Notes: generated by a model from the sequence alone, not told the origin. A stretch of DNA of 64,000 nucleotides from Fistulifera solaris (GCA_030295235.1 AP026125.1:124001-188000); one strand, 5' to 3'; counted from the first letter of the stretch, positions 151 to 43,380 are shown. Made by a program: numbers and translations.

Positions 151-2564
151 ATGAAATCTCTTCCAGTTCTTTTACTTCCGTTCTTGCTACAAGCTACCTC
201 GGCAGAGTTATTGCGTGCTGACAAGGCAACAAACCGCGAAGGAAACGATGAAAGCGTGAAGACAGCGCGAGATTCGAAAGCACCTATCCGCAACCGACGT
301 CTTTTCAATGTATTCAACTTGCAATCGCTCTTGGATGACACGACAAAAACCGAAGAAGTCATTGATGACTCGTCATTTGAGTCGGGTCGTAGCTACTTCA
401 ACCTTTTCACCAACATTTTTACTGGCGAACGTGAACCGAGTGAGTCACCCGCGAACGAAAAGCCTGCGAATGAGAAGCCGCCCGCGGACAGCAAAGAGGA
501 GGAGAAAGAAGAAGAAGTCGTGCCGAAAGTAGAAGACACGACTCTGGCTCCGACGCGCGCCCCTGTGGAGAAACAGACAGTTCAGCCGGTCACCGCCGAG
601 AAGGTAAAGGAAACAGCGAAAAACTTTCTGGAAACGTATACCGGAGGTTGGGTGCCCAAACCGGAAGGAACCTATTCGGAAATCTTCTTGAGTGTGTTTG
701 CTGCTCGTACGGTGAATCCTACAATCTCGCCGGCTCCTACGATGTCTCCTGCCCCGAGCGCTGTGCCCACAATTCTTCCGGTTGCTGGTACGGAAGGACC
801 CACAACAACTGTATTCCCTACGACTGGACCCACAACCGCTCCTTCTTTGATTCCATCTTCGCAAATTCAAACAGTTCCCCCATCCGTCTCAGTCCCTCCG
901 TCACTCGCGCCGAATGATTTAAGCGGTGCACCGACTTCGAGCTTTTCCCCGACTTCGAGCCAATTGCCTACGTTAGTAGGAACTGGAAGCGAGGATCCAA
1001 CTCTTTCGCAAGTACCGACAAGCCTTTCGCCTTCGACATCTTTGGCGCCTTCTCTGGTGCCAAGTTCGAATATCATTGCCTCGATTAAGCCTTCCGTGTC
1101 GGCAGCTCCTTCCATTACCGCGCTGCCATCCGCATCGAGAGCACCTTCGTCAACTGCACAGCCTTCTGGATCGGTGCAGCCTTCTCGATCATCACCTCCG
1201 ACTGTTTCGGAATCTCCTTCCGTGTTGCCCACAAGCAACAGTACTATAAGTGTTCCCCCTAGTTCGGGTCCCACTACGACAATTGCTCCCTCTCTCGCTC
1301 GTGTCGAAGGAGGCTTTACGACCGAACTCAATCTGGATCAAGTGCCCGAAGCATATCGACAAGTGTTTACTGACGCCGCTGCGCGGTGGGATACAGTCAT
1401 CGTGGGCGACTTACAGGACTTTGTCATGACCGAAGCCGACCGCGCTACGGCAGGGTCACGTTGTGATGCTTCCACGATACCTGATGTTATCGATGATGTG
1501 TTTATTTGTTCCAGCCTTCCCAGCATAGACGGCGCCGTGGGAATCCTCGGTTCAGCCGGCCCTCTATTAGGTTTGTTTTGATTGAAGAGATTGCTTTGTT
1601 TTGTTGTGTTGAACAGCGAAAATTTTCGCTCGATTTTTCCTCTTTTTAGCTCCAAACTCATTTTTATTCGTTCTTCGCAGCTCGAAGTGGAGAAATCTTG
1701 CAGACATCTGTCGGATATATGCAGTTTGATTTGGCAGACATCGATATTTTGAATGAAAATGGTCAACTTGCCGGGACAATTGTAAGTTCGACCTTAGATT
1801 TTCTGTCTTAACCCTAACCCTAATTTGTTTTGCAGTGACTTCTTTGTCGTAACCCCTAACCCTAACTCACCGATCATTTTTCCACTTTGTTCAGCTCCAT
1901 GAGATGGCACATGTGGTGAGTAGTCTCAATTCAAGTTCATGACTTTCCTGTCGCAACATATTTGTCTCACTTCAGCGGCTATTGCGTCGTATTCCTTCTG
2001 CAGTACGGCATCGGTACGCTATGGGGACCCAACTCTTTGGTAGAAAACAACGACATTTGTGCGTATCGCTACGATTCTAAGGCTAGTGAAGAGTATCGTG
2101 CCTTGAGTGGATGCGACGGAGCTGTTCCCATTGAAACTGACGGAGCCGAGGGAACGAAATGCTTGCATTGGGATGAAGATTGCTTTCAATCCGAACTCAT
2201 GACGGGTGTCAATACAGGTAGCCAAGAACTCTCACGCATCACCGTAGCGGGCTTGGAGGATTTAAGTTACACGGTAGATTACAGTCAAGCTACGCCTTAC
2301 CCGTCGTCTCTGTTGGCGCCCAGTTGCAACTGCAATGCGAATCGCAACTTGAACGAGGATGTTTTCTTCAATGAGCGACGACAATTACAGACAGAAACTA
2401 CCACAGCGGCGAGATTGAATGCGATCGATTATGGACGTTCCCAGCTGCGATCGTTTCGAGCTGCTGCTTTGGGCGGCAACTCTGTATACTTAGGTGACAA
2501 GGTGATTGTTGTGTTGTATTGGGATGATGGGGTAAAGTCCGTCGTTGTTCGGTCTGATACCTAA
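151..2564 (+). CDS. Secreted leishmanolysin/M8-like zinc metalloprotease with Pro/Thr/Ser-rich stalk (copy 1)
   Basis: Signal peptide MKSLPVLLLPFLLQATSA. Exons inferred from GT-AG sites: 151-1570, 1681-1781, 1895-1915 (LHEMAHV), 2004-2564. Spliced motif HEMAHVYGIG, then CLHWDEDCFQSELMTG (third His and Met-turn). Confidence 0.85.
1809..1866. repeat. Short telomere-like CCCTAA tracts in intron 2 of copy 1
   Basis: taaccctaaccctaa (1809-1823) and taacccctaaccctaac (1850-1866). Confidence 0.55.
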
Positions 2565-3026
2565 TGTGTGACTGAAAGAGTTACAGAATACATAGGTAGA
2601 ATAGTGATATTTGTTTTCAGGTTTCTATTGCATTTGCTTCGTCAAATAATTGTGTCTTCGTTTTCATTTATTACTGAGTAAAAAATACTCTACTCCGAGT
2701 AAAAGGTTATACAACTATACAACGGGTCGCTTCACTCGGGACTCGACTAATTACCTGTTCAACACCAAAGCTACTGTAGGGTGTATTGTACTATATCCTT
2801 GTACAGCTGTCAAGCATAATGTGAGCCATGTGTCTTACCGCTATCACCAATGTACATTATATCATAGAGTCCCGAAGTGGATGCCGTTGCGCGGTTTGAA
2901 TTTTTTTGGCGGAACGCCTTGCCTTCACATTTTGGAAGTTGAAAGCCTCGGCTTTTTCATCCTTGATCGCGAAAGAACCGAACGCCACCTGCAATAATTG
3001 CCAATGAGAACAGAATCATAGCCAAG

Positions 3027-5181
3027 ATGAATACTAAGAGCGCCCTACTTATCCTTTCTGCTCTTACGACTATGTCGTCGGTATCTGCTAAGACCACAAG
3101 ACGAAGCGGCTATACGGTGCAACGCGGAGAGAACGATTCCGCTCGCCGAAGGCAGCTGAAGAAATCCAAATCGCATTCGGTCGATAAAGAACACAAGTCA
3201 GATTTAAAATCGAGTTCACGGCCAAGTGTAGTGCCAACACAGGCACCTGTCGCAACTCAACCTGTAGCGCCTTCTCCACAATCAACGTCGAAATCGAAGA
3301 AGCTTGATGATCGTCATGAGTTAGGCAAGGGCAAAAAGCGAAAGGTACCGAAACAAGAAAGCTCTAAATCGAAAAAACTAGACGATCGAGAAGAGTTGGA
3401 CAAAAATAAAAAGAAGAAGAAATCACGCAAAAAGTCTAAAGAATGCCAGAGTTTAGAGGAAGAAGACGAACCGACAACATCGCCCACTTCTTCACCGAAA
3501 AAGAAATCCAAGTCGCATTCAAAAGAAAAAGGCAGAGGTAAAGCTTCGTCTCCTGTAACATCGCCAACGCAACAACCTTCCAAAGGCCTTTATTACGTGG
3601 GTAAGCGAGAGAAGTTGAGCAAGGATTACCCAGAGACGGATTGTGTTACATCTACGACAAGTCCAGTGACATCGCCAGTATCTACATCGAGCCCGTTGGC
3701 ATCTTCAGTCATTACATCAAGCCCACTGGCGTCTTCTGTGACAACACCCAGTTCTCTCCATCCGCCTACGAGCAGTCCAACTGCTCTCAAAACCGCAGCA
3801 CCTACGGCTCCTCCGCAACCCGACACTGCGCCTCCTACTCTATCCCCAATCAAATCACCGACACGAGCTCCCAATCCTCCTCCTGTAAAGCCTCCAGTGA
3901 CACCTCCTGTGCCGCGCCCTGTTCCACGACCCGTAGCTCCTCCTGTACCGAGACCTGTGCCTCGTCCGGTGGCTCCTCCCGTTCCACGCCCTGTGGCACC
4001 TCCTCCAATCACCGCCGGAGAGTTTGAAACGACTCTAAATCTAGACCAAGTACCTGATCGTTTCAGATCAGCATTCATTAATTCCGCAACAATATGGGAC
4101 AACGTCATTGTTGGAGATATGTCGGACTTTGTGGTGGACGCTTCTGTACTGAACAGCCCGAATTTGAATTGCGATACGTCGACGTTGCCGGACGTAATTG
4201 ACGACATTTTCATTTGTGCTTCGGTCCAGCCGATCGACGGGCCGGACTCCATCCTGGGGACAGCCGGGCCCACATTTTTCCGCTTTGAAGATACGATTAC
4301 TTCTACAATTGGCTTTATGAATTTCGATGAAGCTGACATGGATCTTCAGCGGGAAGAAGGCACTTTACAAGGCTTGATTGTAAGTTTCTCGACATTCAGG
4401 TGTATTGTTGTGCTCTCAAACAATATTCTAACACTCTGTTCTTTTAACAAACTGTTAGCTTCACGAAATGGCCCACGTCGTAAGTTGCAGATAGCGTGTC
4501 CAACTCATTCCTTTACATACTATCATTTCTCACTCGATTTTTCCTTTTAAAATCCAGTATGGATTCGGCACATTGTGGGACTTGAATGGCCTTGCCGCGG
4601 CAACAGCTCCGTGTCCATACAAATCGGATTCTCGTGCGAGTGAAGAATATCGAAAACTAAGTGGCTGCGATGCCTCCATCCCTGTCGAACAAGAATTTGG
4701 TGCCGGAACGGCATGTTTGCACTGGGATGAGACTTGTTTCATGGGTGAACTCATGACAGGTTCCAGTTCCGATGGCTTGGAGTTGTCCCGTTTCACAATA
4801 GCTTCTTTAGAAGACCTGGGCTATACAGTCGATTACTCGAAAGCGACTGCCTTTGATACTTCCCAAATGAGTCCGAGTTGCGTCTGCAACAATCGGAGAC
4901 AGTTGAGAGGTAGCCACGACCGTGGTATTTTCTCGTATCAAAACGTAGGCAACGTTCCACAATGGGCATCGGACGCGCAGCTTCGATCGCACAAGCCCCC
5001 ACTCAGCGAAGAGGGAAATCGAATTGCCCGAGCGCACGGTTTATCCATTTTAAACGCCAACCATGAGTGGAAAAAAGCGTATTTGAGGGACGACTTGGCG
5101 GAGCACTATGTCGGTGATCAAATCATCGTTGTCCTTTACATGGAAAATGGGTATAAATACTCTGTGATGGTGAAGAGGTAG
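3027..5181 (+). CDS. Secreted M8-like metalloprotease with Lys/Ser-rich and Pro-rich (PVPRPVAP) N-terminus (copy 2)
   Basis: Signal peptide, RRRQL. Exons 3027-4379, 4459-4479 (LHEMAHV), 4558-5181. HEMAHVYGFG and CLHWDETCFMGELMTG. Confidence 0.85.
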
Positions 5182-5673
5182 TAGATGCCATGATGTCACC
5201 TGTAAATTCCTAGCTTTTTTCGTTTTTGCGAATCAACCGTAGCTGCCTTTGAAGCAGCTTCTCATGCGACAAACACAAAATACAGCTAAAACGTAGTAAG
5301 CAAGAATGCATTACCGAGAAATAAGTCGTCGGTTTCTCTAACCATAGACTGCATGCCTATTATTATTTGTCATCGCATGCATTTTTCTTCGATCCACCGC
5401 CGCCTTTCGTCTTGCGTGAAGTTGCAGTCACGCGTCATTTGTCATTGTTGAGTCACGTGTCGAAACAGGGCGCGCGCTAGGAGCGAATGGTTGTGTACTC
5501 TGTAGCCCAGTTTCGAGTACCGGTTTTCGTTGTGGCGAATTTTTGGCCGTAACGGCTCACTTTTTGGCGCAAAACAAAAACCTCGTCACAAACATCCGAA
5601 GACAAAGTAAAATTCAAAAACACACGCCTTCGTCAGGAACAGGTATCTTGTTCTTGTGATTTAAATAACAAAC

Positions 5674-7917
5674 ATGAAGGCCGAGCAACTTTTATCAGTT
5701 CTCTTAGCCGTGTCGAGCTTTTCCGCGGCGCAAGCCCGGCATGTGCGAGCATCACTTCGTGCTGATCGCAACCTCAACGTTCAGGTTGTCAATGACTTGA
5801 TGTACTTAAAGAAATCGACTAAAACAGACTCCACAAGTAAGAAAACAACAAGAGGGAAAGGAACGGAAACTTCGGGCAAGGGCGGAAAAGGTTCGCAAAC
5901 AACCTCCAAAACGACAAGTCAGAAAACATCCAAAGGCAAAGGGTCGGCATCTTCATCACCATCACCCACTATGCCATCTTCGGGTAAAGGCAGCGGCAAA
6001 GGCAGCGGTAAAAAGAGCTCAAAGGTTTCCATGGATGAACCCACCGCGGCTCCAACTGTGCATCCTGCTTGTTCTCCGAGTCCAATTGTGTCAATATCGA
6101 CCGAAATGCCCTTAGCAGCACCCACCGTTCCTGTACCGAGTCCGGTTGTTGTCCCCGCTCCAGTGCCTGCACCGACTCCGGTTGCTGCTCCAGTTCCTGT
6201 ACCGACTCCTGTCGTTACACCTACTGTTTCGCCTTCCGCTATTTCGGAGCCAACTGCGACACCACAAGCTGAGATTACGGATGCTCCGACAACCGCCAAT
6301 CCGACAGCAAGTCCGACGACATCTGAACCCTCTGTCACGGCTTCACCGACATCGACTGACACGGAAAGTCCAACTGCAAGTCCTACGACGCCCGAACCAT
6401 CGGTCACAGCCTCTCCTGCACCTTCACAAGCAGTGACCGGAACTCCCTCGCAAGAAGCGACTACCAGTCCCGCGCCTACAATCACTTCCTTCCCCACCAT
6501 AACAGCAGAACCTTCTTCAGCAGTTACAAGCGCACCATCACAGGACAATTCCAGCCCCGAGCCTACTTCTACTGTCGCTCCATCGCCCGCTGGAACGTCG
6601 GAACCTTCACTAGCAGTCACGGATCCTCCCTCCGTAGATAATTCGAGTCCAGAACCAACACCGGTACCAATCTCCGAATTCGACACGACGCTTGGTCTCG
6701 AACAGGTCCCCGATCGATTTCAATCGTCCTTTATTGACGCAGCGAGGATCTGGGATACGGTGATTGTCGGGGATATGCCAGACCTTGTTGTGGACAGTGA
6801 TGTCTTGAACAGCCCCAGTTTGAACTGCGATCCTTCAACATTGCCTGATGTTATCGACGATATCTTCATTTGCGCCAGTATAACACCTATTGACGGGCCC
6901 TTCGGAGTTCTTGGAACAGCCGGCAAGTCTTTTCACAGTTTGGGTTAATTTGGCTTCGTATTGACCGGCAACTCACACAACGTTTCTTTTTTGAAGGCCC
7001 TCAACTTGCTCGCTTTGGTGATACGATCACAGTTACTGTCGGCGGAATGAACTTTGATGAGGCTGACATGGACTTGCAACTCGAAGCCGGTACTTTAGAA
7101 GGCCTAATTGTACGTTGACTGATGCTTTTATGTCATTCAATAAGCTTTGTTCACTAACACAATGATACTCTTTGTTAACCGACTTGCAGTTACACGAAAT
7201 GGCACATGTGGTAAGTTTGCTGCAGCACGAACGTAATAATTCAATGAACTTGGTAGTTTCTTACACAGTCGCGTTCGCTTTCAGTACGGATTCGGTACTT
7301 TGTGGGCGTTTAACAATCTTGCTCCACAAGCGCTTCCATGTCCATACAGTTATGATTCCCGAGCCAGCGAAGAATATCGATTGCTAAGTGGGTGCGATGC
7401 TTCTATACCAGTGGAAGATGATTTCGGTGCTGGGACGCAGTGTTTGCACTGGGATGAAGATTGTTTTTTGGGTGAGCTCATGACAGGATTCAGCACGGAC
7501 GGCTTAGAGTTGTCAGTCTTAACGGTTGCCGCCCTGGATGATCTTGGCTACACGGTGGACTATTCAAGAGCGGAACCTTATGATACGTCCAAGATGAGCC
7601 CGGATTGCGTTTGTAACCGGAGAGAGCTACAAGGCACACCAGAGAAAGACATACCTGAAGTGTTTACCTACCACAACGTGGGTAAACTTCCCATATCGCA
7701 CATCAGCACAACCAGCAGTTCTAGTCTTAGGCCACCGCTCAGCGAAGAAGGAAATCGAATTGCGAGGGCTCACGGAATGGCCATCTTGGACGCAAACCAC
7801 GAGTGGAAGAACGCTTACCTCAAGGATGAGCAAGCTGATCAATATATTGGTGATCAAATAGTTGTTGTTCTTTACATGGAAAATGGCTACAAATACACAG
7901 TCATGGTGACAAGATAA
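5674..7917 (+). CDS. Secreted M8-like metalloprotease with KxGK-rich and PTS-rich N-terminus (copy 3)
   Basis: Exons 5674-6922, 6997-7109, 7190-7210 (LHEMAHV), 7285-7917; the first intron is GC-AG. CLHWDEDCFLGELMTG. Catalytic domain closely resembles copy 2. Confidence 0.85.
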
Positions 7918-8622
7918 CGACATGTCTATACGCGTGAACGAAAGCGTGCTAAGAGTCATAGAATCATAATCGCAGACCGAGGTCGCACTTGTGAAATAGT
8001 TTGTTATTAAATGGAAGGGCGTCTTTTGTGGAGGAAGGGAGTTTGTTATTGTTATTTACATGAAATCGGGAACTCCTTCAAAGCAAATATAGAATTCCAA
8101 TGTAGCGCAAACCTCTCAGAATTAGTTTGATAATGGTTAGTTTGAATGAGGGGGCCCTAGGTGTGGCATTTTTTCCGCATTTGACCGGAAGGACGTTAAA
8201 ATTCTGCCTCTCAGTACAAGTTCCTACGTAAAGCCTACGGCGAGGCAGAATTTTAACGTCGTTTCCCGTAACAAGAATGTGAGCACGTGCTTCCAATCTC
8301 CTCAGTAGTTTCCAGAATCTTACCGGTACACATTTATCTAATCCGCAAAACCCATTTGAAAATCAAACTAGCGGTACTGAATTGACTATACGCTCAACAA
8401 GTAAACTCAAAAATTCATCGCGGATGCGTTGAAAAGAAAAATTGCCTCACAAATTGATCGATCTTGTAGACGACCATCGGAGAGCCGGCCATAACACAGA
8501 AACGATTCAAAGCGTGCCGTTGAATAAGAACATCTTGTCTTCTGACACCCGAAACTCACGAGTTCTTTTACATTGACGATTGATATCGCAAAACCGTTAT
8601 TAAAGCCAAAGTCAGAACCACC

Positions 8623-11494
8623 ATGGTTCGTTCTATCGAAAACATAATAGTGCTGGCGACAATTGCCTTGACTGCCGCATGGGGATACGACTTGAGTCAA
8701 GATATTGGATTGGAAGGCACGAGTCGATCGTCGGTAACAAGGCCTTCGCACGAGCAACTCATTCAACAACGCCATCTACAGCAAACAGTTGCCGAGAAAG
8801 TGAAAGCGGCCATCGAGCTTGCTGCCGCCGAAGCACATGACGACGACCATACTCCCTCGCCAACGAATTCATTTGAACCCACTTATCAAAGCGGCAAAGG
8901 AGAGACGAGTGCAAAAGCCAAAGGCAAGAAAAGTGGCAAGGGCAAAGGCGATTCAAGTGACAGTGACGACACTCCCTCCGACTACCCCACTTATTTGCCG
9001 ACTAGCACTGCTATTCCAACAGGCACAGCATACCCGACGACGATTGAATTGAAGAGTAAGAAAAGTGGCAAAGGAGAGACGAGTGCGAAGAACAAAGGCA
9101 AGAAGAGTGGGAAGGGTAAAGGCAATTCTTCAAGTGACAGCAATGAGACTCCGTCGGATTACCCCACCTTTGTGCCTACGAGCTCAGCTATCCCGACAGG
9201 AACAGCATACCCGACAACCGAATTGAAAAGTAAGAAAAGCGGCAAAAAGGTGAAAACAGTGCCAAAACAAAAGGCAAGAAGAGTGGCAAGGGCAAAGGCA
9301 ATTCTTCAAGTGACAGCGAGGACACTCCCTCCGACTACCCCACTTATTTGCCGACTAGCTCAGCTATCCCGACAGGAACAGCATACCCGACTACTGAGTT
9401 GAAAAGTAAAAAGAGCGGCAAGGGTGAAAATAGCGCGAAAGCCAAAGGCAAGAAGAGTGGAAAGGGCAAGGGCGAATCGAGTGACAGCGACGACACCCCT
9501 CCGACTTCCCCACTTTTTTGCCCACTCTTCTGCCTACTAGCTCAGCTATGCCAACAGGCACAGCATATCCGACGACTGAGTTGAAAAGTAAGAAAGGCGG
9601 CAAAGGCGAAAGAAGTGGCAAGGGCAAAGGCGAAAAAAGTGGAAAAGGTAAGGGTAAGGGTGATTCAAGTAGCAAGGGCAAAGGTGAAAAAAGCGACAAG
9701 TCAGGCAAGGGTGAGAAAAGCGGAAAAGGTCAAATGAGCAAGTCGAGTAAATCAAGCAAATCAAGCAAGAAGTCTTCGAAAAGAGTGCCTCGCCGGCTCC
9801 TTCACTAAGCCCAACGGCAATTTCCACTGAAACAGAAGGTCCGTCAATATCATTGAGCCCAACGACGTCTCCCAGTGTGTCAGCAAGCCCTTCGGTAATC
9901 TCTCCGTCTACTCTTCCATCAGTCGCGCGAACTTTTGCACCGTCTGAGGTTGTGTCAACTTCCCCCTCATCTCAGATTGTCGAAACTGCCAGTCCCGCTC
10001 CAACAGAGGAAGAAACCATAACGTCAGCTCCCACTGCCGCTCCTAGTATCGGTACACAGAGTCCAAGCGCTGACACCCAAAGTCCGAGCTCAACACCGGG
10101 TCCAAGCACCGACACGCAGAATCCAAGTGCCGCGACCGAAAGTCCGAGCTTAACTATAAGTGAGGCACCCTCAGCTGACACGCAGAGTCCTAGCGTTTCT
10201 GCTGAACCCACCACCACCGTAGTTCCTACAGCTGTCCCCACTACAACAGTCAGCCCAAGTGGTACGCCTTCGGAATTTCCATCCATCATTCCTACCGTAT
10301 TTCCAGAGTGAGATTCCATCAACTGAACCTTCGGCCGATGATGGTAATTTGAGGGAAGCCAGTTTTGAGACAACCCTTGATTTATTCAATGTAGATGAGA
10401 GGTATCAGGATGCGTTTATTGTGGCTGCCGATCGATGGGGATCGATTATTGTTGGAGATCTGCCTGGTCTTTCCGTGACGGACGATACACGAGATGGTGT
10501 GTCATGCGAAAGTTTGCCTGACACGATCGACGATATCTTTATCTGCGCCACGGTGGGCGACATTGATGCTATCAGCGGAGTGCTGGGCTATTCGCAACCG
10601 GAATATGGGGTAAGGCTGGATGGTAAAATCATTCCTGTTATTGGGAGTATGACTCTTGATAGTGCTGATATTGATGATTTGATTGATTCGTCACTTCTCG
10701 AGTCTGTTATTGTAAGTATAGAAGACAAAAGCAGTCACTTCTGATACCATCATGATCTCACCTGGAATTTCGCCCTCCTTTATCAATGAAGACGCACGAA
10801 ATGGGTCGAATTGTAAGTGTCATTTTGGCTGCGTGCCTTATACTTGCTGCAATAATTACGATGACTGACATGCCGTTTGTCTTTTCAGTATGGAATCGGT
10901 TCCTTGTGGACGATGAATGGATTAGTCAAAGAGACCGACTTTTCGTCGTGCTCTTATGCTGCTTCCTCGAAAGCCACGGCTGAATACCAGGAGCTGAGTG
11001 GATGCGACAAGCCCATTCCACTCGAAGGCTGTGGCTTCACGGACAAGACATGTTTCAAAAAGGAAGTCATGACGGGCTACGAAGGGGGTAAAGTTGTGTT
11101 GTCGAGAATGACCGTGGCTTCCTTGGAAGACATGGGATACACCGTCAAGTACGATGCCGCGGATGACTACGGTGTCGAAGATATGGACCCCAGTTGCGTG
11201 TGCGCGACGACATCGACGATTACAATCGGTGATGTCGGCATCACAAAAGTTGAGCGCAACAGACCGACGGTGCGAAAGCTCGGAACGGGCAAATTTGAAT
11301 CGAACCATGCGCATTTAAGTCTCAGTGGTCGCTTGGAGGCAGAAGCTTTCGGTTTGGAACTCTTGAAAGCGGCCAAGCGGCGGAAAAAGTATGTCATTGA
11401 GCGTGAAGGATTTGTCTTCCTCGCGGACCAAGTGGTCTCTGTACTGTATAAGGAAAAAGGACAAATATACGGCGTCGAAGTTCGAAGCGAATAG
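8623..11494 (+). CDS. M8-like protein, probably catalytically inactive, with Lys/Gly/Ser-rich tandem repeats (copy 4; frameshifts in this sequence)
   Basis: Signal peptide and QRHL. Exons 8623-10711 (several frameshifts), 10792-10812 (THEMGRI), 10889-11494 (YGIGSLW...EVMTG). The HW motif is absent. Confidence 0.75.
8889..9600 (+). repeat. About four coding tandem repeats of ~175-180 nt
   Basis: Unit KSGKGETSAKAKGKKSGKGKGDSSDSDDTPSDYPTYLPTSxAIPTGTAYPTTELKSK recurs near 8889, 9061, 9236 and 9411, with a partial unit at 9593. Confidence 0.9.
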
Positions 11495-13339: not shown

Positions 13340-15607
13340 ATGTTACGCCACATTCTCACGAAATTCACAGGGACTACTACTTCACGGTGGATGGCCGTGG
13401 CCGCCGTGACGGCGGGCTATTCCTTACAAAATGAAGACGAACTTGTTTCCTACTTTGAACGAAAGAAATCCTATTGTTGTGGATTAGTGGGAGTTATTGG
13501 GAGTGAGAATTATTCGTCGCGGTGCGTAGCCCAAAAGAATCCTCTTGCTGTATGTCTTTCTTTCTTTGTTACTCACTTTTACCGCAGCGACTTTTTTATT
13601 GAATGGTTTGAGTTTACTGAAGAATCGTGGTTTCGATAGTGCGGGAATTGCTACAATGGATGCTCAAGGAGAACATATGGTGCGTCAGCACGGAAGGGAA
13701 ATAAACGAGGAAGAAAAAGTGCTCTTTTCATTCTCTCACACAATCGCTTCTCTATTCGACACACAGACCATTACGAAATTTGCCAGCGTCGATCATGGCA
13801 TGAATTCGATTGAATTGGTGCATACGCAACATCCTATTACCGTCGACAGCATGGGCATTGCGCATACACGGTGGGCGACCCAAGGGGCCCGGACGAACGA
13901 AAATGCGCATCCGCACACGGATGCGGCGGGACGCATTGCGGTCGTGCACAACGGGAATATCAATAACTATGATGCCCTGCGGAAGGAACTGATTGAAGTT
14001 CATAAAATATCGTTGCAAGGACAAACGGATTCGGAAGTCTTGGCCAAATTGATTGGTCATTATTACAACGGCGACAATTTGAAACACGCGGTCGAAAAAG
14101 CACTCAGTCGTTGTGATGGGACGTGGGGATTGGTTGTCATGAGTCAAACGCAGCCCGATCAACTCATTGTCGCCTGTCACGGGTCTCCCATGGTCATTGG
14201 CGTCGATGATCGTCGCATGTACGTTGCCAGTGAAGCCGAAGCCTTTGCCGGATTGACCAAGACGGTCGTGCATATGGAAGATGGTGAAATTGCGACTCTG
14301 TATGCCGATGGACGGTCGTTGGATTTTTCGCGGGTGGAACAAGTGGCGGAGGACGAAGAAGAACAACGGGCTTTGTCACCAGCACCCTACCAGCATTGGA
14401 CGTTGAAAGAATTGTCGGAAGCCCCGCAAGCCGCGGCACGTGCTCTCGGGTTTGGTGGTCGTTTGGGTGCGGATCGGGTGTATCTGGGGGACTGGATGAT
14501 CAAGTGGAGGCCTTGAAACAGATACGTCATTTGGTATTGGCGGGTGTCGCTACTTCGTTGCATGCCGCGAAATATGGTGAACTGCTGATGAAACGATTGG
14601 GGAGTGTCACTTCCGTGGCGGCCTTGGATGCGGCCGAATGTGAATCCAAAGATTTTCCCATTTCGGAGGATTTGCGAGAAACTGGTTTAGTTGTCATTTC
14701 GCAATCGGGTGAAACCAAAGATGGTGTTTCGTTGGTGCAAATGGCCAAAGGATTGAATATTCCCACAATGTCAGTGGTCAATGCCGTGGGCAGTACGATT
14801 GCGCGGGCCACCAAATTGGGTGTGTACTGCAATGCGGGGCGCGAAAATGCCGTGGCCAGCACCAAAGCTTTCACCAGTCAAGTCACGGTGTTGTCTTTGA
14901 TTGCTCTGTGGTTTCAGCAGAACCGTCCGAATCGTAAGAAACAACATTTGGTGGAAGCCGAGCAATTAAAAGAATCTCTCATGCGACTCCCCATGTCGTT
15001 TGGTGCATCGTTGCAGACGCACGAGCAGTGCAAAACCATTGCTCGTAAACTCAAAGGCAAAGAACATTGTTTCGTGCTGGGCAAAGGATTTGGTGAGCCC
15101 GTGGCACAAGAGGGTGCGTTGAAGTTAAAAGAATTCAGTTACATTCATGCGGAAGGATACAGCGGCGGATCATTGATTCATGGGCCGTTTGCATTGTTGC
15201 AAAGTGATTTGACTGGTAAACAAGGTGCAACGCCCGTGATTATGATCATTTTGGACGACGATCATGCTCAGGAAATGCGCATGGCCGCCGAAGTCGTCAA
15301 AGCACGCGGTGCCCAGATTCATATCATTACCGATAATGTTGCATTGGCGGAAGACTTGGACGACGATCCGATTGTGATCCCGAACAATGGATACTTGACA
15401 GCCTTGGCGGCAACAATTCCTCTGACACTGATTGCGTACGAATTGGCGTTGATCAAGTAAGTGATCGATTAGTGGGAACGTGGTGGGAATCGAGCCTCTT
15501 TTTATTCTGAATTTTCCTAACCTTGTTTCTTTCTATTTCTATGATGCAACAGAGGCCTTAATCCTGATACTCCACGCAACTTAGCGAAAGCTCTTTTGGT
15601 GAGCTAA
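13340..15607 (+). CDS. GFAT: Glutamine:fructose-6-phosphate aminotransferase (GFAT/GlmS), divergent, with N-terminal extension
   Basis: CGLVG, NRGFDSAG, HTRWAT, VHNGNINN, TDSEV, SQSGETKD, VASTKAFTSQ, EGALKLKE, PRNLAK. Introns ~13522-13587, ~13680-13767, ~15457-15552; homopolymer frameshifts at ~13595 and ~14490. Confidence 0.93.
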
Positions 15608-20604: not shown

Positions 20605-23600
20605 ATGGTTCTCTCTCGAGCTCAATCGCGGGCGCTTTCAACCACGTGATGGACAATGTCCTTGGCCGTGGTGATGATTCTACTCTTAAGCAAGCGTTGG
20701 TGTCCGCAGGGTTTCTGGACATCTACTTGCTCCTCGAGTTACGTCCTTTGGACATCGGAAGTCTTGAGTTTCGCGAACGGCCGGCGAAAACTTCCCAGTC
20801 GCTCGTGGTGATAAGACTTTGTTGTATGCCTTCCTCGAGTTTGTGTCTCATCGTGGTCGTTCTGGTGACCCGATCGATGACTGGTTGGCGGTCACTGAAG
20901 ACGGGTTCAATGAGTTCCGCTTAAGCCCGAACGCGTTTTCGATCGCGAACAACCTCGAGGCCCCCGGGGTTCCTGTTCCCCCTCCTGTTGCATCCCGTGC
21001 GCGAGGGAATGTCTCCCGCAGCTCTTTTCAAGCGTGGTATTAAACGTGATCCTTCTCTCTTTCCTACTCTCAAGGACGAGAGCTTCAACGGCGCCTGGCA
21101 TCGTTCTTTTGTCAATCAGGCCCGAGCTCAAGATGTGGAAGAGGTGCTCAACGAGGATTATGCCCCTACTACTGAAGACGAAAGAGAGTTGTTCGACGAA
21201 AAACAGAAGTTTCTCTACGCCGTCTTGGAGAGTAAGGTGCTTACGGACCAAGGAAAAGCCCTTATTCGCGACTACGAAGACACTTACGACGCCCAAAAGG
21301 TCTATGCAGCGTTGAAGCGCCATCACCTACAGTCTACCAAGGCCCAGATGGATTCGGCAACGATTCTATCCTACATTACTTCCGTTCGTTATGGAGAAGG
21401 TCATCGTGGTGGTACTGCATCTGGATTCGTGCATGATTGGATTGAGCAAGTTCGCCGTTATGAGCGCATGTCCGGTGACCCCTTTTCCGATAAGCACAAG
21501 CGAATCCTACTTGAGAATGCTGTTAGTACTGTCGCTGAGTTCCGTCAGGTCAAAACTAGTGCTGATTTGGAGTTGACCAAGAATGGAACGGAGTTAACTT
21601 TCGAGCAGTACTGCGCTCTCTTGATTTCCCGCTGTGTCTCAGTTGAAGAACAAGCCAAACGCAAGTCTCAGCGTCGGTACTGTTAACTTCCATGAGACTT
21701 ATGCTTCCGATTTCTGTGATGAGGCCGGTACTGGGGAAGTTGACCTTTCTGGTTATCTTGTGGACTCCGATGTTCCTGTTTCTGAGTGGCAAGTTAATGC
21801 TACTGACCGGCGTTCTGTTGGATTCCGTGGTTCTCCTTCAACTGGGTCTGCTCCTAGAACGCGAATGCCGCGCGAACGTTGGTTCCAGTTGAGCGATGAC
21901 GCGCGTCAAATTTGGGATTCTTTGGCGGATCGCGATAAAGCCATCATTCTTGGTTTGCTTTCCGCTCCCGGACGTGATGTCAATGGCGGAAATCGTGACA
22001 CGCATTCCATGACTCAGACCGGTCGTCCGTCCATCCTCCGTCGCACGGTGCAGTTTCACGACCTTGACCCTATTGCATCTCACGACTCTTCCCCTCCCGG
22101 AACCTACTGAAGAGTTTCATGATGCTGCTCAAGATCCTCCAAGTGCCGTGCTTGATGGTGAGTCTACCGTGCTTGTGAATGCCGCTCGCTCTAGTTCTAC
22201 GCTGGCCCCGCACGATATTCGTCGCCTTCTGTCTCGTTCTTCGCAGAACAATTCGAATCGTCAAGTTAACACTTTGACGACGTATCGCGTGTCCCTTCAA
22301 CACGTTTCTCCTGTGGATTCGCTACTCGATCGCTAGGTGCCAACGGTGGTGTTGCCGGCTGTGACGTCCGAGTCATTCACAAGGATTTTCCCCATCGGCG
22401 TGTCAACATTCAAGGCATCGACAACCATCAGATGACCGATCTCGAACTTCCGGTACTGTTGGCGGCGAGGCGCGCAACACGGACCGGTCATAGCTGTTTT
22501 CAACCAGTACGCGTTGTATGGAAAAGGCCCTACCATTCACGCTTCCGGACAGTTGGAGCACTTCAAGAACGTTGTCGATGACAAGTCTATCCACGTGGGC
22601 GGGCGGCAGTGCATCGCAACTCTCGACGGTTACGTGATCCCTCTTCAAGTTCAACAGGGACTCGCTTCGCCTTCCTATTCGTCCGTTTACCGACGACGAA
22701 TGGCGTTCTCTCCCGCGTCATTATGACGAGCCTTCTCGATTGGGATCCTTCTGTTCTCGATCATGCTAACGATCAAGCTGATTGGTTCGATCGCATCAGC
22801 AACACGCTCGATCTTGAAGATCCTCGTCCCCTCTTCGACGAATTCGGCGACTACCATCGCGGGGATAGTATGGACATCGAAGATCGCCGTTTTTGCCCAC
22901 GTCGCCCTTCCTCCGATCTTTCCGGCCCTTGACGAAATCATCGAGTTGCGCCCACGACGCTTACGGTATTGAGCCCGCCGCTTTCCAGGCTATTGCCCGC
23001 CATTTCGAGGTCTACAACAACGAATTTGTCGCACAAGGCCATGTTGATGACGACGACGACGTGACTGGACCACCCGTGAAAGCCCTTCCCGTCACGCCAC
23101 GTACTATTCAGCGCCAAGACCCGGATCTAGGTCGACTTCGTCCTTACTTTGGATGGATTTCCAACGATTTGATCAAGAAGACGCTTGAAAATACCACCCA
23201 GTATGCTCGCCTTCCACTCCCTGGCAGCACCCTTCTCAAGCGCGCCTTCAAGTCTTCAAATCCGGCTCTCAATGTTCATCGCCGTTCCGAAGCCGTCGCG
23301 TGTGATATCGTCTCACAGCCAATACACCGGCTATTGACAATGGGTCCCAGTCTGCCGTTATCTTTGTTGGCTATGATACCATGGTTACCGATGTTTATGG
23401 TATCAAGACGGATCGCCAGTTCATTCGGACCTTGGAAGACAATATTCGTGAACGGGGGAGCCCCAACTCGTCTCCTTAGCGATCGCGCCCAAGTTTTGAT
23501 CAGCAACGCGGTTCAAGACGTTCTTACTTTCTGTATCGGCGTGTGGCAAAGTGAGCCCCACCAACAGCAACAAAACCCTGCCGAACGCCGTTTCCAGACG

Positions 23601-26329
23601 ATCAAGAATACTGCCAACCGCATCTTAGACCGTACCGGCAGCCACCTTCTCACGTGGCTTCTTTGTCTTCAATACGTGTGCTTCCTCCTCAACCACACGT
23701 ACAATCAAACTTTGAAGACTGTTCCGTTGTTGGCGTTGACGGGTTCGACTCCTGATGTTAGCGTTCTTTGCGCTTCTACTTCTGGCAACGTGTTTTGTAT
23801 TTGAAGCACGACTACGGTTTCCCTTCTGATTCTCCTGAAGGCCTTGGCACTATCGTCGGTATTTCCGAACATGTTGGGCCCGCTCTTTGCTGGAAGATTC
23901 TCACTGCTGACACCAAGCAAGTCATTTGCCGATCTTCCGTTCGTCCGTACACTGAGGACGACCCTAATTTGCGCCGCTCAGGCTGCCGGGAGATGTCTTC
24001 TACTACTTCTGCTCCTGTCATCCTGTCCCGCAAGGATTCAGTCACAGAGAAAATTTCGTTTTCTCTCAGCCCTCCGACAGCCTTAGCGACCGTGCCTCCT
24101 CCTCCACCGTTGATGTCGAAGATTTGATTGGTCGAACGTTTCTGACGGATGTGGCTTCTGATGGTCAGAAACACCGAGCAAAGATTGCACGCTCGTCGAC
24201 GATTTCGATTCTTCCGTTGAACGAGTACCAGAATGAATCAAGTTTGTGTGCAAGGTTGGAGAATCCGAAGCCGAAGAAGTTTTCAGCTATGCCCAGATCA
24301 TGGCATACCTAGCTCGAGACGCGGATGCCCCTGTTTGGAAGTTCAAGCACATCATTTCGCATCAAGGTCCCCTTAAAGATGGAGATCTCGACTACAAAGG
24401 TTCTTCCTACAATGTATTGATCGAATGGGAGAACGGGGAGATCACAGCTGAGCCTCTAAATGTTATTGCTTCCGATGACCCTGTGACCTGTGCTATTTAT
24501 GCCAAGGAAAATAACCTCTTGGATGTTCCCGGTTGGAAAAGATTCAAGTCCATCGCAAAAAGACACAAGAAGTTCGTCCGGTTGGTGAACCATGCTAAGC
24601 TTCGCTCCTACAACACGGCTCCGCGATACAAGTATGGTTTCGAAATTCCCGTGACTATGCACATGCGATGCGTCTAGACGAGCAAAACAAGAACACCAAG
24701 TGGAAGGATGCCGTTGCCTTAGAGTTGCTTCAAATTCAAGAGTACGAGACCTTCAAGGATTTAGGTCACAAGTCGGTTGGGAGGCCTCCTCAAGGTTACA
24801 AGAAAATTAGCGTCCACTTAGTTTTTGACGTCAAGCACGACGGACGTCACAAGGCTCGACTGGTGGCAGACGGACACTTAACCGATATCCCTACTGAGTC
24901 TGTCTACTCCGGCGTTGTCAGTTTACGGAGTTTCCGTCTGGTTACTTTTCTTGCCGAGCTTAATTCTCTCAAGTTCTGGGCTACCGACATCGGCAATGCC
25001 TATCTCGAGGCGTTTACCTCCGAACGCGTCTACATTGAGGCTGGACCTGAGTTCGGTGAATTGGCTGGTCATATTCTTCTTATCAGCAAGGCCCTTTACG
25101 GACTACGTACCAGCAGCGCAATGGGCCGATCGATTGGCTGACGTTATGCGAATTGGGTTTTCAACAATGCAAGGCCGATCCCTACATTTGGCTACGACGC
25201 AACGAAGATGTTTACGAGTATGTTGCGGTCTATGTTGATGATTTGGCCTTAGCGATGAAGGATCCTCAAGCGTTTGTCGACTTGCTAACGAAAGAGTACA
25301 AGTTCAAGTTGAAGGGAACCGGCCCAGTCAGTTTCCATCTCGGAATGGACTTCACTCGTGACAAGGATGGTACTCTTTGCATGTCTCCCAAGAAATACAC
25401 CGAAAAGATCATCGCCGAATTACGAACGAATGTACGGGGAGTCGCCCGAAACAGAATGTCACTTCACCGTTAGAAAAGGGCGATCATCCGGAACTGGACA
25501 CTTCAGAGTTTCTGGATGAGAAAGGTACTCGAGATTACCAGTCTTTGATTGGTTCGTTGCAATGGTTGATCAGTATCGGGCGCTTCGACATCATGACTGC
25601 TGTTATGACGATGTCCGGCGTTTCGTTCTGCTCCCAGCGCAGGGTCATTTGGATCGCGTTAAGCGGATCTTTGGATACGTTTCGAAGATGCGGAACGCCG
25701 CCATTCGCTTTCGTACAGGGGTTCCTGATTTGTCCGATCTACCTAATTTTGAGTACGATTGGTCCAAGTCGGTTTACGGTGACGTGAAAGAGGTTGTTCC
25801 CCATGATGCTCCTGGACCTCTCGGCAAGGCAGTTGTTTCTCACGCATTATGTCGATGCGAACTTGATGCATTAGTGGCTACGGGGAGATCTGTGACTGGT
25901 ATTCTACATTTCCTTAACCAGACGGCCGATCGATTGGTATTCCAAGAAGCAAGCTACTGTCGAGACGGCTACGTATGGATCCGAGTTAGGTTCGCCGCCA
26001 AGGACTTGTGTTGAACAAATCATCGACATTCAAACACACTTCGCTATTTGGGTGTTCCTATCCGAGACAAGGCTTATATGTCTGGCGATAATCAATCGGT
26101 TGTCAACAGCTGACGCAAGTTCATGCCAAGCTTCACAAGCGTCACACGATGCTTTCCTTTCATCGAGTTCGTGAGGCAATTGGCGTCTGGTATGATTGCT
26201 TTCCTTCACATCCCTGGCGACATGAACCCGGCCGATATTCTCAGTAAGCATTGGGGATACTCGCAGATCTGGCCGCGTTTGAAGGCTGTGTTGTTTTGGA
26301 TGGGTGACACCTCGGAGATCGAAGACTAG
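20605..26329 (+). CDS. Gag-Pol polyprotein of inner element (multiple frameshifts)
   Basis: gag FKRGIKRDPSLFP; protease LLDR.GANGG; integrase SDRAQ...QNPAERRFQTIK; chromo-like YNVLIEWENGEITAEP; RT VFDVKHDGRHKARLVADG and YVDDL; RNase H TGRSVTG...NPADILSKHW. Confidence 0.9.
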
Positions 26330-26465
26330 TTCAGGATTCCAAGGTGTCGAGTGATATTTGTGGTTATGTGTTGAGTGGTTTTACATGTTTATATGTCTGA
26401 GCGAGGCAAACAGGGATGGAGTTTGGTTTGAATTGGTTTGGATTTGGATTGGAGACCGTGTCTGC

Positions 26466-26479
26466 GAGAAGACGGGGAG
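26466..26479 (+). other. Polypurine tract of inner element
   Basis: GAGAAGACGGGGAG immediately 5' of the 3' LTR. Confidence 0.85.
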
Positions 26480-26993
26480 TGTCAAATTATATTTAGTTCT
26501 GGTCATGAGTATTCGGGACTCCTAGTGTGTGTGGAGTGTACTTACTGTCTTTGTGATAGTGAGTTTGTGTATCCGGTACTCATGGTATCTTTTGGGGTTC
26601 GCTTCCGCACACGTCATCGGAAGTTTGGCGCATGTGCAAGTTCTTCTCTTGACACGTCGCAGAGGTGTGCGTAGTGTGTGGTATAGTGTTCTACGTGACG
26701 TATAAGTTGGTACCAGAGCTAAGGAAGTTATGTTTAAGTCTACGACGGCATAGTACTGGTCAAGTGTCGACGTCGACAAGATTTGGTTCAAGATCACAAG
26801 ATCTTGACTTCATTTCCGCCCTCTTTTGCAGTCTCACATGAATAACAATAGTGAATTTGGTTTGCCTCGACTTTCCTTGTTCGGCTCTATTCTATTGCAT
26901 CCTGTCTCTTGAAGACAAGCTTTCTTTCAGTCTCGCTTACTGTTTTGAAGATTCGTTTCGGGTGAGCTATCTGTGCGCTCCCGGAATTTGTCA
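26480..26993 (+). repeat. 3' LTR of inner element (514 bp)
   Basis: Matches the 5' LTR by eye except one extra G near 26884. Confidence 0.97.
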
Positions 26994-29900
26994 CATAGAA
27001 ACCGAAGTCGGCGTATTCTGTGATGTCGGGAGTGATTCCGGTGACACACTCAAGTGGCGGCCATTTGAGTATCTTGAGGAGTTCGTGGTGCGGTTTCCTA
27101 TTTCCGACACCCACTTCAATCCGAGCGACCACAGCCTGTTTGGAACATTCCTGCGATGCATTGCACGATACCATTTCATTTTGAGCTGTCGTATGCCGCC
27201 TTCAGCAGGGTTCTGGTTTGGGCGATCCTTTTCAGACGTGTGCGTGATGATGTCGTATTTTCGTATTCTTCGTTGAAATTCGGTCTTTGGTCCTGTTTGA
27301 TTTGCAGCACCGTCATAAGTCAAATGGTCGGGTGCGCCGTGTTCATTAGCAAAGTTGCGCAGTGTCTCACCCACCGCATCACCAGTTAGTGATTCAATGG
27401 GGTAGACTGCGGAGAATCCATTCTTGTGCGTGTAGGCTTGTGCGTATTTCTTTCCGTCAATGGACTTTATATCGCCATACATGGTGTCAGTGGCAAAGCG
27501 TCCTTGGAGTCGCCTGAGATTGTATTGACGGTCCGCACGGTAGCGACGACCGGCTGGCATTATTAGCGGATCGAGTTCCTCTTTGCCTGGTTGCTCGTAG
27601 AAGTTGCCCGTGCCTGTTCCAGTCCGATTGACCATTGGTCGGATAAGTTCTCTGCTGTGATAGCTAGATGTCGTTCGGCTTGAAATAAAGGTGCGCCCTG
27701 GCTGGTACGTCTTCAAAACCGAGAATGGGCTCTGGTGCTGGGCCCAGTCGATTGCTTAAAGTGCCAGTCCCCTCAATCCCTGTATCTGTCCCCTCAGGCC
27801 TTGTTGCAAGTTCGTGATAAGCGGAAGAGATCCTGACACGAGAAGTTGCTAGTTCCCGAAGTTGAACAAGGGCTGGATCGACGTTGTGAAGGAGTGAATC
27901 ACTTGTGAAAGGGTGAATGAAGGGTTCAGGCGTGGCCGCTGGTTCAATGGAGGTCAAATCAACAGCACCCAACGTGACTTGCTTTGGGTTCCATTCGTTG
28001 AAGTTGGTCATATGGAGCTGACGACAGTGTTGAAGTTCATATTCAGTTGGAGCACGCGTGATAAACTGGCCTTTTGTGCCGAATGTGTGAAGCGGAATCA
28101 CAACGTCCTCTACTCGTATTGACATGCGTGTTTCAGAAGTGTCGTACGGATTGTCATTTACTTCCACACCGTTGTGGCGCAGCTGGTTTGGATTCCAGAG
28201 CGTGTCGCGGGAAGTGGCGTGCCGTAGTAAAGTGTTTCATTGAAGACAAGGATGAAAGTTTGGTCTGTTTCGGGATTCGTCCATGCCGTGGCAGCCGAGA
28301 CAATTAGTACGTCTTTGATCGGCTGATAGGAGCTATCGTACGGGTAAACATCGGCAAAGCGTGACGTGTACTGCATAACGACAAAGTTGGTCCCGGCGCA
28401 GCAAGTGTCCGCGTTTGAATCGCATTCATTTGCAGCAGCAACTCCCGGCTGTGGTGGAACGCCCGACTTGCATTGATTTCATATCTAACTGGTGCGACGT
28501 GTACACAGAATGGAAATGTGCTATGTTTCGATTGCCTCGCCTGTTTGCTTCTTCGTTCACGTCCGGCCAAAAGGTGTGCCTCCTGGCGTTTGCGTGTTGG
28601 CCTGGCTTAGCTGCATGGTGATGGCTGATGCAATTGTATTAGCATCAGTACCATCTGGAATTGAGAGAGTGAGCTGGTTGATACTGCGACCAAACTGGCC
28701 ATTGTTGTTACCGTTTGCTCGCTGGTTTCGATACTCCGCTCGCTTGTTGTAGATGTTTTGCCTGTCGTTGCGGGTGCATGAGCGACATCTCCTCATCAGT
28801 GAAACTGTAAGAGGGGTGTCGTCGATGACCTTCCGTTCGTGAGTGTCAGTTTGTAGTTGTCGGGATGAGCGCGTGGTTTGTTGTAACGGTGTGCACCGCG
28901 CCCACCGCGTCCTCCGCGCCCTCGTCCACCGTGCGTGAAGGGCTGGCCTCGGCCACCGTTTCCACGGCCGCCTCTGCCGCCACGTCCCCCATTTCCTGCG
29001 TTCTTATGCTGCTGGCGTGTGGAATTTGTATTTCCCACGTTGCGTCCTTTGCCTGTTACGTCCTTGTTTTCTGTGACGATGATGTTCGCATGTCAGCAAG
29101 TACGGCCTCAAAGGTCATATCGCCATAGTTGGGCTTGCCGAGGTCTCGCTGAACGGAAATCGCTACGTCGCGCAACTGGCTGCATGGTTTGATCATTTTC
29201 AACAGCTTCTTGATCTTTTCGATGTCGTCATACACAACAGTTCCTTCCCGAGCATTCTTGTTCTTGTCGTGGAATGCTTTTACGAGCCTGCTTTCGAAGG
29301 TGGTCCAAGGGAGGCGCCCATCCTTTTCACCATGGTACATCATGGTGTCAAGAGTGGTTTCGGCATTGACGATTTCGATTTTGAATGCACCTACAGCCGA
29401 ACAAAGCTTTCAGTGCGAACCAATCGGTACGGCCGCATAGCTTGGACTTAAACTGTTGCGTGGCACCTTCAGCACGAGTATTTCCTGCAATAAGGGCAAG
29501 GAGATACGTGTGCACCTCCATGGAGTCGGACTCAAATGCAGGACCGGCGAGTGCTGCAGCGGCGATGTAGCGGTTTTGGGCAGTGATGCGTTCATCGGGA
29601 TCGAACTCGGGGTCTTCCCTCGTCGCGAATAACGTAGACAAGTGGATGCCCAAGGCGTCCAGGGAGCTGGCGAAGGTAGTTTGTAAACTGGGCTGCAAAG
29701 TCTGGCCAAGACTGGTTGTTACGGAACTTATCCGGCTTTGCAATTGTCGCTAAAGTTTTGGAGCGCGTGACGAATGCTTCATGGTCTGCCTGTTCGTACG
29801 TGAGAAATAGTGCCTGATTCGTTGGAAAGACGTAAGTCTCCGGGGTTTGAAGGCAGCGGAAGCACTGCTTCACCCACTCGATGAATGCCTGGAGTTTGGT

Positions 29901-43073: not shown

Positions 43074-43380
43074 CGTGCAATCGTTCTTTTATTGAGACTT
43101 ACGTTTTTGTTCTGTGACGAGAAAATGAGAGGATGATTATGAAAAAAATCTTGTTTTGAGTACGATTTTCCCGGTGACGGTCGTACTGGTATTGAAGTCA
43201 GTCGTGTTTTATATCTCTAGTACGACTAAAAGTCGGACGTCGGACATACCATTTTAACACTAAGGTTATCTCTTCTGTATTTCAGCTTAGAACCTACCTG
43301 GTATAAAATATTTCATACTCCTATTCTTTTTTTTTGTTTTCAAGTGACCCTTCCCCATCTATTAAAAAAGTAGATTTGTT

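Follow-up and report, generated by a model that had tools for sequence, protein, structure and literature searches.

Near the start of a 64,000-nucleotide stretch of the Fistulifera solaris genome (G000:C5:124001-188000 of the 51.7-Mb assembly, hereafter the window), four genes follow each other on the plus strand at positions 151-2564, 3027-5181, 5674-7917 and 8623-11494 (copies 1-4). They raise the question of why proteins that resemble secreted proteases of the leishmanolysin family (M8) also carry marks of diatom silica-associated proteins. The original prediction, made from the DNA alone, saw four M8-like proteases whose precursors are cut at RXL motifs to release a silica- or mucilage-binding peptide together with a protease. 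We found that copies 1-3 very probably encode M8 zinc proteases, that copy 4 appears to be a catalytically dead member retained in both subgenomes, and that the RXL positions do not fit the release of a free peptide. The reading that we prefer, and regard as moderately probable, is that of secreted M8 proteases which are tethered to the cell surface or to mucilage and have a removable C-terminal pro-module, the dead copy 4 being reused as a binding or wall protein.

Copies 1-3 are predicted M8 zinc proteases

Copy 1 codes for a predicted secreted protein of 700 amino acids in an open spliced frame (exons 151-1570, 1681-1781, 1895-1915 and 2004-2564). Copy 2 codes for 665 amino acids (exons 3027-4379, 4459-4479 and 4558-5181) and is identical to the public protein FisN_11Hu316 (P0097); copy 3 codes for 671 amino acids (exons 5674-6922, 6997-7109, 7190-7210 and 7285-7917, with a GC-AG first intron) and is identical to FisN_11Hh317 (P0094). 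The HExxH segment lies on a separate 21-base exon in every copy, and the micro-exons of copies 1-3 (1895-1915, 4459-4479 and 7190-7210) all read LHEMAHV. Splicing was judged from contigs of four runs (X1-X4) of one study, for which the RNA label is a guess; the contigs of run X1 span introns and behave as DNA. Introns 2 and 3 of copy 1 are skipped in contigs of runs X3 and X4. The GC-AG intron of copy 3 is likewise spliced out, and the micro-exons of copies 3 and 4 are included, in contigs of runs X2-X4. Intron 2 of copy 1 also holds two short ccctaa-like repeat runs (1808-1866), which resemble telomere repeats.

Against the Pfam profile of Peptidase M8 (PF01457, curated cut-off 21 bits), copies 2 and 3 scored 40.9 and 39.7 bits at full length and the last exon of copy 1 scored 22.3 bits; a search of NCBIfam gave nothing above cut-off. 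HEMAH, H-W-D-E and ELMTG are present in each of the three copies, and copy 1 has every zinc ligand. A homoeolog could be aligned to leishmanolysin (1LML, E 2.2e-5) through HEMAH, the third histidine and the Met-turn. The model of the last 335 residues of copy 2 (predicted local distance difference test score, pLDDT, 89) matched 1LML with a Foldseek E-value of 1.7e-9 and, over 227 aligned residues, with a Z-score of 21.4 and a root mean square deviation of 2.8, the next-best structural entry reaching a Z-score of 9.4. Sequence and model thus agree in assigning copies 1-3 to the M8 zinc proteases, and we predict that they are active.

The domain looks like the compact, bacterial type of M8. It shares with leishmanolysin (GP63, MEROPS M8) the fold of the first 240 residues, HExxH, the distant third histidine, the Met-turn and the secretory route, but it is half the size, and the match stops at 1LML residue 388, so that the C-terminal domain of GP63 is missing. 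Unlike GP63, the array proteins have no hydrophobic glycosylphosphatidylinositol (GPI) tail, and they carry a stalk rich in proline, threonine and serine (PTS), a lysine tract and an RXL-bounded C-terminal module. The nearest relatives in sequence and model are bacterial proteins named leishmanolysin-related zinc metalloendopeptidase (35-45% identity; top Atlas clusters at 0.93 bacterial), and the nearest module-less relatives are bacterial where named. These bacterial proteins, in contrast, have no C-terminal module; the modules that they bear are Ig-like, Calx-beta, PPC or others. The best non-stramenopile matches given in the available part of Table S1 of PMC8035641 are from Deinococcus and others. 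In a quick, unrooted tree that used 70 of 142 module-less sequences, 67 of these 70 rows lay across one branch (Shimodaira-Hasegawa-like approximate likelihood-ratio test 97); one row classed as 'module-less' (P0258) shows the module by eye. Horizontal transfer from bacteria is not supported by this tree, which has no GP63-type outgroup.

The protease family is known, and Table S1 of PMC8035641 (Schoina et al., 2021), as far as available, lists copies 2 and 3 by accession as M08 proteins with a signal peptide in orthogroup OG0000057; their protease nature is therefore not new. The same source reports a large F. solaris metalloprotease set, 53% of it secreted. Its available parts describe no array, stalk, RXL site or module.

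Secretion, as originally proposed, is also suggested by hydrophobic N-termini in all four copies and, for copies 2 and 3, by the signal peptides listed in that table. A PTS-rich stalk was confirmed throughout, with 52-58% P/T/S over the 200 residues before the domain. The claim that a GPI tail is absent held as well, in that none of the four copies has a hydrophobic C-terminal tail by simple hydropathy, with no GPI predictor run.

Copy 4 has lost zinc ligands and is retained

Copy 4 (8623-11494) encodes a predicted secreted pseudo-protease of 905 amino acids when four assembly frameshifts are taken into account (exons 8623-10711, 10792-10812 and 10889-11494). Its 21-nucleotide micro-exon (10792-10812) reads THEMGRI, with an arginine in place of the second zinc histidine, so that HExxH has become HEMGR. 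Around the third zinc ligand (11025-11075) the H-W-D-E of the other copies is replaced and the third histidine is gone, while the Met-turn is kept. Both changes are the same on C5 and on its homoeologous contig C6; among 117 relatives that could be parsed at this position, 114 have the third histidine. Neither of the two large domain exons matched Pfam M8. From HEMGR, the lost histidine and the missing profile match it follows that the description as four proteases was wrong: it stands for copies 1-3, which exceed the Pfam cut-off, and fails for copy 4, which, with two of three zinc histidines lost in both subgenomes, is predicted to be no protease.

A reading of copy 4 as a pseudogene was rejected. 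The frame of copy 4 changes four times in the window, and contigs of run X1 differ from it by a single base at 9243, 9495, 9778 and 10306. With these differences applied, the gene reads through as 905 residues. One contig has a fifth difference, at 9402, which is incompatible with the open frame; it was left out of the gene model and probably reflects a misplaced repeat unit. In a contig of run X2 the letters of the micro-exon directly follow exon 1 (a loose end at 10711). Between the subgenomes, the ratio of nonsynonymous to synonymous substitutions (dN/dS, by simple counting over 90-120 codons per region) ranges from 0.11 to 0.23 along copy 4, with 0.15-0.17 for the domain, 0.12-0.16 for the lysine repeats and 0.11 for the module; the domains of the active copies have values of 0.02-0.14. 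The frameshifts of copy 4 are assembly errors, and the gene is spliced and under purifying selection.

From its N-terminus copy 4 consists of an RHL (residues 50-52, 8770-8778), a repeat block (8890-9780), a PTS stalk (9781-10360), the altered domain, and an RKL followed by the C-terminal module (11273-11491; dN/dS 0.11 for 11216-11491). The repeat block is built of units of ~58 residues, spaced by 174-182 nucleotides, in which Lys/Gly/Ser alternate with Pro/Thr/Ser/Tyr; it ends in a long Lys/Ser/Gly tract with pentalysine clusters, and no RXL lies between its units.

The gene seems to have escaped annotation. Among the available entries of the OG0000057 table, 19 proteins are from F. solaris and none is near 905 residues. 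Subtracting one fused annotation and the copy 4 pair from the 22 genes found in the genome gives 19, so the pair has apparently been missed. Metagenome searches found no orthologues of copy 4, and in the open-access literature we found no description of a conserved dead M8 member with silaffin-type lysine repeats. A second dead pair was seen elsewhere in the genome: a short M8 gene at G000:C9:102859-104013 and its homoeolog on C10 read SEMGT for HExxH in both subgenomes and have neither stalk nor lysine tract.

RXL sites and the C-terminal module

Each copy has one early RXL at residue 32-50, namely RRL, RQL, RNL and RHL in copies 1-4, exactly as the original prediction had listed them. In copy 1 it occupies 295-303 (residues 49-51); in copy 2 it opens a Lys/Ser/acidic tract (3150-3623) and in copy 3 a short Lys/Gly/Ser/Thr tract (5767-6024). 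Shuffling of residues 20-60 yields an RXL in 27-57% of cases. Taken alone, this first site is weak evidence, and what weight it may have comes from its position and, by analogy, from known diatom precursors as described in the available text of PMC5525289 and PMC4557024.

No RXL lies between the lysine tract and the protease in any window copy; the sole RXL ahead of the protease precedes the tract. Upstream copy D has a single RTL in its stalk on C5, which is not kept on C6. Cleavage at RXL would thus leave tract, stalk and protease joined and yield no free lysine peptide. This makes it highly improbable that cleavage splits each precursor into a lysine peptide that binds silica or mucilage and a separate protease, the step on which the original prediction had built. 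RXL and K..K are hallmarks of silaffin precursors (available text of PMC4557024), trail adhesives have PTS stalks (bioRxiv 2023.03.06.531300, in the part available), and the protease could cut its own stalk. Yet no RXL stands between the units of copy 4, copy 1 is without a tract, and Pfam found no CAA, vWA or other known adhesive domain. The repeats of silaffin-1 each end in RXL, according to the accessible sections of PMC4557024, whereas the array tracts are not RXL-delimited. A design of that kind was seen elsewhere in this genome, on the minus strand at L032:3251-4777 (G000:C23, ~498.3-499.8 kb): a secreted polyprotein of His/acidic/Lys units separated by REL, which reads as a true silaffin-style multi-RXL precursor and is unlike the array genes.

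The second RXL is better supported. As the original prediction had noted, each copy has one behind the protease, followed by a conserved C-terminal module: RNL and RQL in the copy 1 linker (2343-2387), RQL right behind the last cysteine of the protease domain in copy 2 (4897-4905), REL in copy 3 and RKL in copy 4. When 1.84 billion representatives were searched with a profile, 479 proteins had E < 1e-30. The module was present in 149 of the 150 best of these 479 relatives, a count that is circular because the profile includes the module. Among 113 further long matches, mostly bacterial by name or domains, four scored for the module and two more showed it by eye. The linker before the module contains R-x-L in 122 of 145 relatives (four of the 149 module-bearing ones were not parsed), compared with 54.7 in shuffles, and 77 relatives have two such sites. 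RL, R-xxx-L and L-x-R were not enriched; R-xx-L was (88 vs 52.6), probably by way of RR-x-L. In the model of copy 2 the linker is disordered. Across the family, an RXL before the module is thus well above chance in the sequences parsed, and these motifs are likely processing sites.

The module (4981-5178 in copy 2) consists of a long helix and a beta-hairpin when modelled alone (pLDDT 95); it belongs to no Pfam family and has no clear fold match. In this genome it occurs only in array genes (10 of 10 matches). We found no description in the open-access literature of an RXL-bounded C-terminal module that defines a diatom M8 subfamily. By eye, the beta-hairpin tails of bacterial relatives seemed to be plausible homologues of the module; this was rejected, as the profile comparison gave a probability of 0.27 and 11 of 60 shuffles did equally well. 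A complex prediction of protease and module, which used no alignments, scored 0.02. GP63 has a cysteine-switch propeptide. In copies 1 and 4 the sequence before the protease is free of cysteine, so a switch of the GP63 type is absent there. Together with the conserved RXL boundary this points to the module as a candidate pro-piece. The enzymes themselves are unlikely to be the RXL endopeptidase, since T. pseudonana processes RXL proteins and has no member in the available orthogroup table.

Lysine tracts and the case for silica targeting

The lysine-rich tracts ascribed to copies 2-4 were found, and they differ greatly. K..K occurs 15 times in copy 2, four times in copy 3 and 29 times in copy 4 (15 of these as K[SG][SG]K); copy 1 has none and no tract. 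In copy 2 most K..K arise from lysine runs among acidic residues, there is no K[SG][SG]K, and a loose lysine pattern is fitted only through a lysine run; the short copy 3 tract holds one lysine-enriched, cingulin-like stretch. Two published silaffin screens were applied as given in the available text of their sources: paired K[SG][SG]K 1-6 apart plus a signal peptide (PMC5501833), and a pentalysine pattern of five non-consecutive lysines in 12-14 residues (bioRxiv 2021.09.18.460806). Only copy 4 passed these strict screens, with four paired K[SG][SG]K and pentalysine patterns at residues 354 and 357, its signal peptide being judged by hydropathy only. Copies 1-3 each have no paired K[SG][SG]K and no pentalysine cluster. 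The label silaffin-like is thus apt for copy 4 and does not hold for the poly-lysine/acidic copy 2, the short tract of copy 3 or copy 1.

The copy 4 tract also resembles the lysine-enriched regions of cingulins listed in PMC9650480, as far as available. With silaffins, cingulins and silaffin-like proteins (Sil1p, TpSil3, CinW2, CinY2) the array proteins share, by sequence, a signal peptide, RXL, K..K clusters and richness in hydroxy amino acids. Those proteins are, however, unfolded chains with few cysteines (PMC5525289, available text), while the array proteins have a folded enzyme domain that contains cysteines. Trail proteins (CaTrailin4, Ca5609 and CaFAP1) likewise have a signal peptide and PTS-rich regions, the latter common to many secreted proteins. 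The array proteins are much smaller, and Pfam, used without a dedicated GDPH profile, found neither a CAA nor a vWA domain in them; the trail proteins have no protease domain described in the available text.

Are the tracts, then, addresses for the frustule? Polyamine-modified lysine tags might direct active M8 enzymes to the silica deposition vesicle or to the wall, where they would trim wall proteins, and the dead copy 4 would be a structural biosilica protein. Such targeting would agree with the copy 4 results above and with K..K-rich tracts in six of the eight array members (upstream copies A, C and D have them too). A DNA pattern for four evenly spaced lysines matched 28 times genome-wide, compared with six for the reversed control, and three of the 28 matches lie in the array or its homoeolog. 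Eight other pattern sites were examined: six lie in secreted or membrane proteins unrelated to M8 and two have no long frame. The tract is thus uncommon but portable. Secreted proteases are co-regulated with silaffins in T. pseudonana (PMC5501833, in the available text), and the pentalysine pattern is reported for 29% of silica-associated proteins and 1.5% of the whole-proteome background (bioRxiv 2021.09.18.460806, in the part available). A pattern in 1.5% of a proteome would, on the other hand, mark far more proteins than have so far been detected in silica; copies 1-3 fail the strict screens; and the main text of the three-species silica proteome, in its available part, names two serine proteases and contains neither 'metallo' nor 'peptidase'.

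The distribution of the family bears on the same question. Named members come from Nitzschia inconspicua, Entomoneis paludosa, Seminavis robusta and Thalassiosira minuscula, and the label of a diatom family rests on these few, which include centric and pennate species. OG0000057 comprises 27 proteins, 19 from F. solaris, four from Ectocarpus, three from Hondaea and one from T. oceanica, and none from T. pseudonana, F. cylindrus or P. tricornutum (PMC8035641 Table S1, available entries). Among the 38 relatives whose part before the domain reaches 60 residues or more, five had two K..K within 10 residues, and the remaining ones have cysteine-rich, lectin-like, leucine-rich-repeat or other N-regions. 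As the orthogroup is absent from T. pseudonana and F. cylindrus and present in the non-silicified Ectocarpus and Hondaea, and as most relatives have no lysine tract, a core role in silica formation is unlikely. On balance we hold frustule targeting to be unlikely as well. In the osmotroph Nitzschia putrida, the ten secreted groups with the strongest enrichment include the leishmanolysins, which the authors suggest may help in the use of complex carbon (PMC9054022, available text). The trail-protein preprint (bioRxiv 2023.03.06.531300) contains neither 'protease' nor 'peptidase' in its text, and PMC7335047, PMC10328945 and PMC10745847 add little in the parts available.

At the other extreme, the genes could encode plain soluble or vacuolar scavenging proteases, with stalks and tracts as fast-evolving spacers and RXL cleavage as generic secretory processing. 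Relatives without a tract, often with a short stalk, apparently work, and dN/dS is higher in the tracts of copies 2 and 3 (0.31 and 0.21) than in the enzyme. This would leave unexplained why the dead copy 4 is retained with both tract and domain constrained (0.12-0.17), and why the relative P0011 keeps the tract of copy 2. It would likewise not explain the acidic/aromatic N-region of copy 1 (331-720), which has no Pfam match and is strikingly conserved between the subgenomes (dN/dS 0.04 over 126 codons). By these ratios the region is constrained as strongly as the enzyme, and it may be a binding module. We consider plain scavenging to be rather improbable.

A proposed model of tethered proteases with a removable pro-module

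The preferred reading of surface-tethered M8 proteases builds on the gene models, the M8 fold and ligands, the dead site, the conservation and the RXL positions described above. A lineage-specific tandem expansion would have produced a set of secreted, compact M8 zinc endopeptidases. The signal peptide would bring each precursor into the endoplasmic reticulum, and a diatom endopeptidase that recognizes RXL would trim a short N-terminal piece and remove the C-terminal module of 60 residues, which would most likely be a pro-module that aids folding or keeps the enzyme latent. The mature chain would remain in one piece, with N-region, glycosylated PTS stalk and protease. Where present, the lysine tract may hold the enzyme at the polyanionic cell surface, be it silica coat or mucilage, and the differing N-regions may address the copies to different places. 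The stalked enzymes might digest extracellular protein in scavenging, in the turnover of mucilage or biofilm protein, or in defence; the wall or adhesive remodelling envisaged in the original prediction is a possible role. Copy 4, after its loss of catalysis, would have been kept as a binder, scaffold or structural protein.

Several points weigh against this reading. The role of the module is a guess, and the module alone has no fold match (best Z-score 4.1; Foldseek E 1.7; best Atlas value 0.77), which does not make it a new fold. An RXL is missing from the linker in 23 of 145 relatives, and in copy 4 it lies ~25 residues from the last cysteine. Expression support comes from contigs of one study; none is spliced for copy 2, for which no spliced contig was seen in the public runs, where cover is low. 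The pentalysine pattern occurs in four of the 38 relatives, a rate above the 1.5% background that is to be read with care, as the background is whole-proteome, with no matching for secretion, and truncated gene calls are frequent among the relatives; by sequence pattern, this counts in favor of silica targeting for a subset of the family.

In a bolder version, which we think doubtful, a bacterial-type protease family would have acquired lysine tags for silica targeting in some diatoms, with the active copies being tethered wall-processing enzymes switched on by removal of the pro-module and copy 4 a structural protein of biosilica or wall mucilage. If true, copy 4 would be a diatom parallel to sponge silicatein, which is derived from a cathepsin; were it found in the frustule, a protease fold would have become part of the wall. 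F. solaris is open to genetic transformation. The family offers a clean test of what RXL cleavage does to an enzyme and of whether K..K tags lead to silica or merely to the surface.

Extent of the array

The array described as four genes is larger. A genome search with one exon placed eight tandem genes on C5 (~108.6-135.5 kb), of which copies 1-4 are the last four; the other four lie upstream of the window. F. solaris is an allodiploid with two subgenomes. The homoeologous contig C6 mirrors the array with eight matching genes, and six more genes, all short and devoid of stalk and lysine tract, lie on C9, C10, C40 and C41, which brings the total to at least 22 matches. The paired contigs C5/C6, C9/C10 and C40/C41 fit the two-subgenome state. 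Between the four window copies, the protease domains share 45-75% identity, and the copies cluster together in the quick tree (support 91). Public proteins identical or near-identical to window genes are FisN_11Hu316, FisN_11Hh317 and FisN_11Lh317, with the UniRef name 'Leishmanolysin-like peptidase'; the last of these (P0001, 1324 amino acids) wrongly joins the C6 homoeologs of copies 2 and 3 in a single annotation. Upstream copy B (G000:C5:111687-112400) has an apparent globular domain ahead of a short stalk instead of a lysine tract. Between upstream copy D and copy 1 lies an unrelated frame of 534 codons (G000:C5:121018-122619), leucine-rich-repeat-like by eye. Between copies 3 and 4 an 80-base element at 8187-8269 has 19-base inverted ends (hairpin z -6.0); with very high contig depth and many different flanks it is probably a high-copy miniature transposon.

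Other features of the window

Downstream of the array, a gene at 13530-15460 resembles glutamine-fructose-6-phosphate aminotransferase by eye and has a frameshift at 14485, which is an assembly error according to the contigs of all four runs. As this error and the frameshifts of copy 4 are alike, single-base errors are a property of the assembly. Three related secreted, cysteine-containing proteins with hydrophobic C-termini that look GPI-like by eye are encoded on the minus strand at 37273-38544, 41850-43088 and 43381-44163; Pfam matched neither of the first two. The region 20925-30179 has, on both strands, broken retrotransposon frames that by eye resemble gag, integrase and reverse transcriptase.

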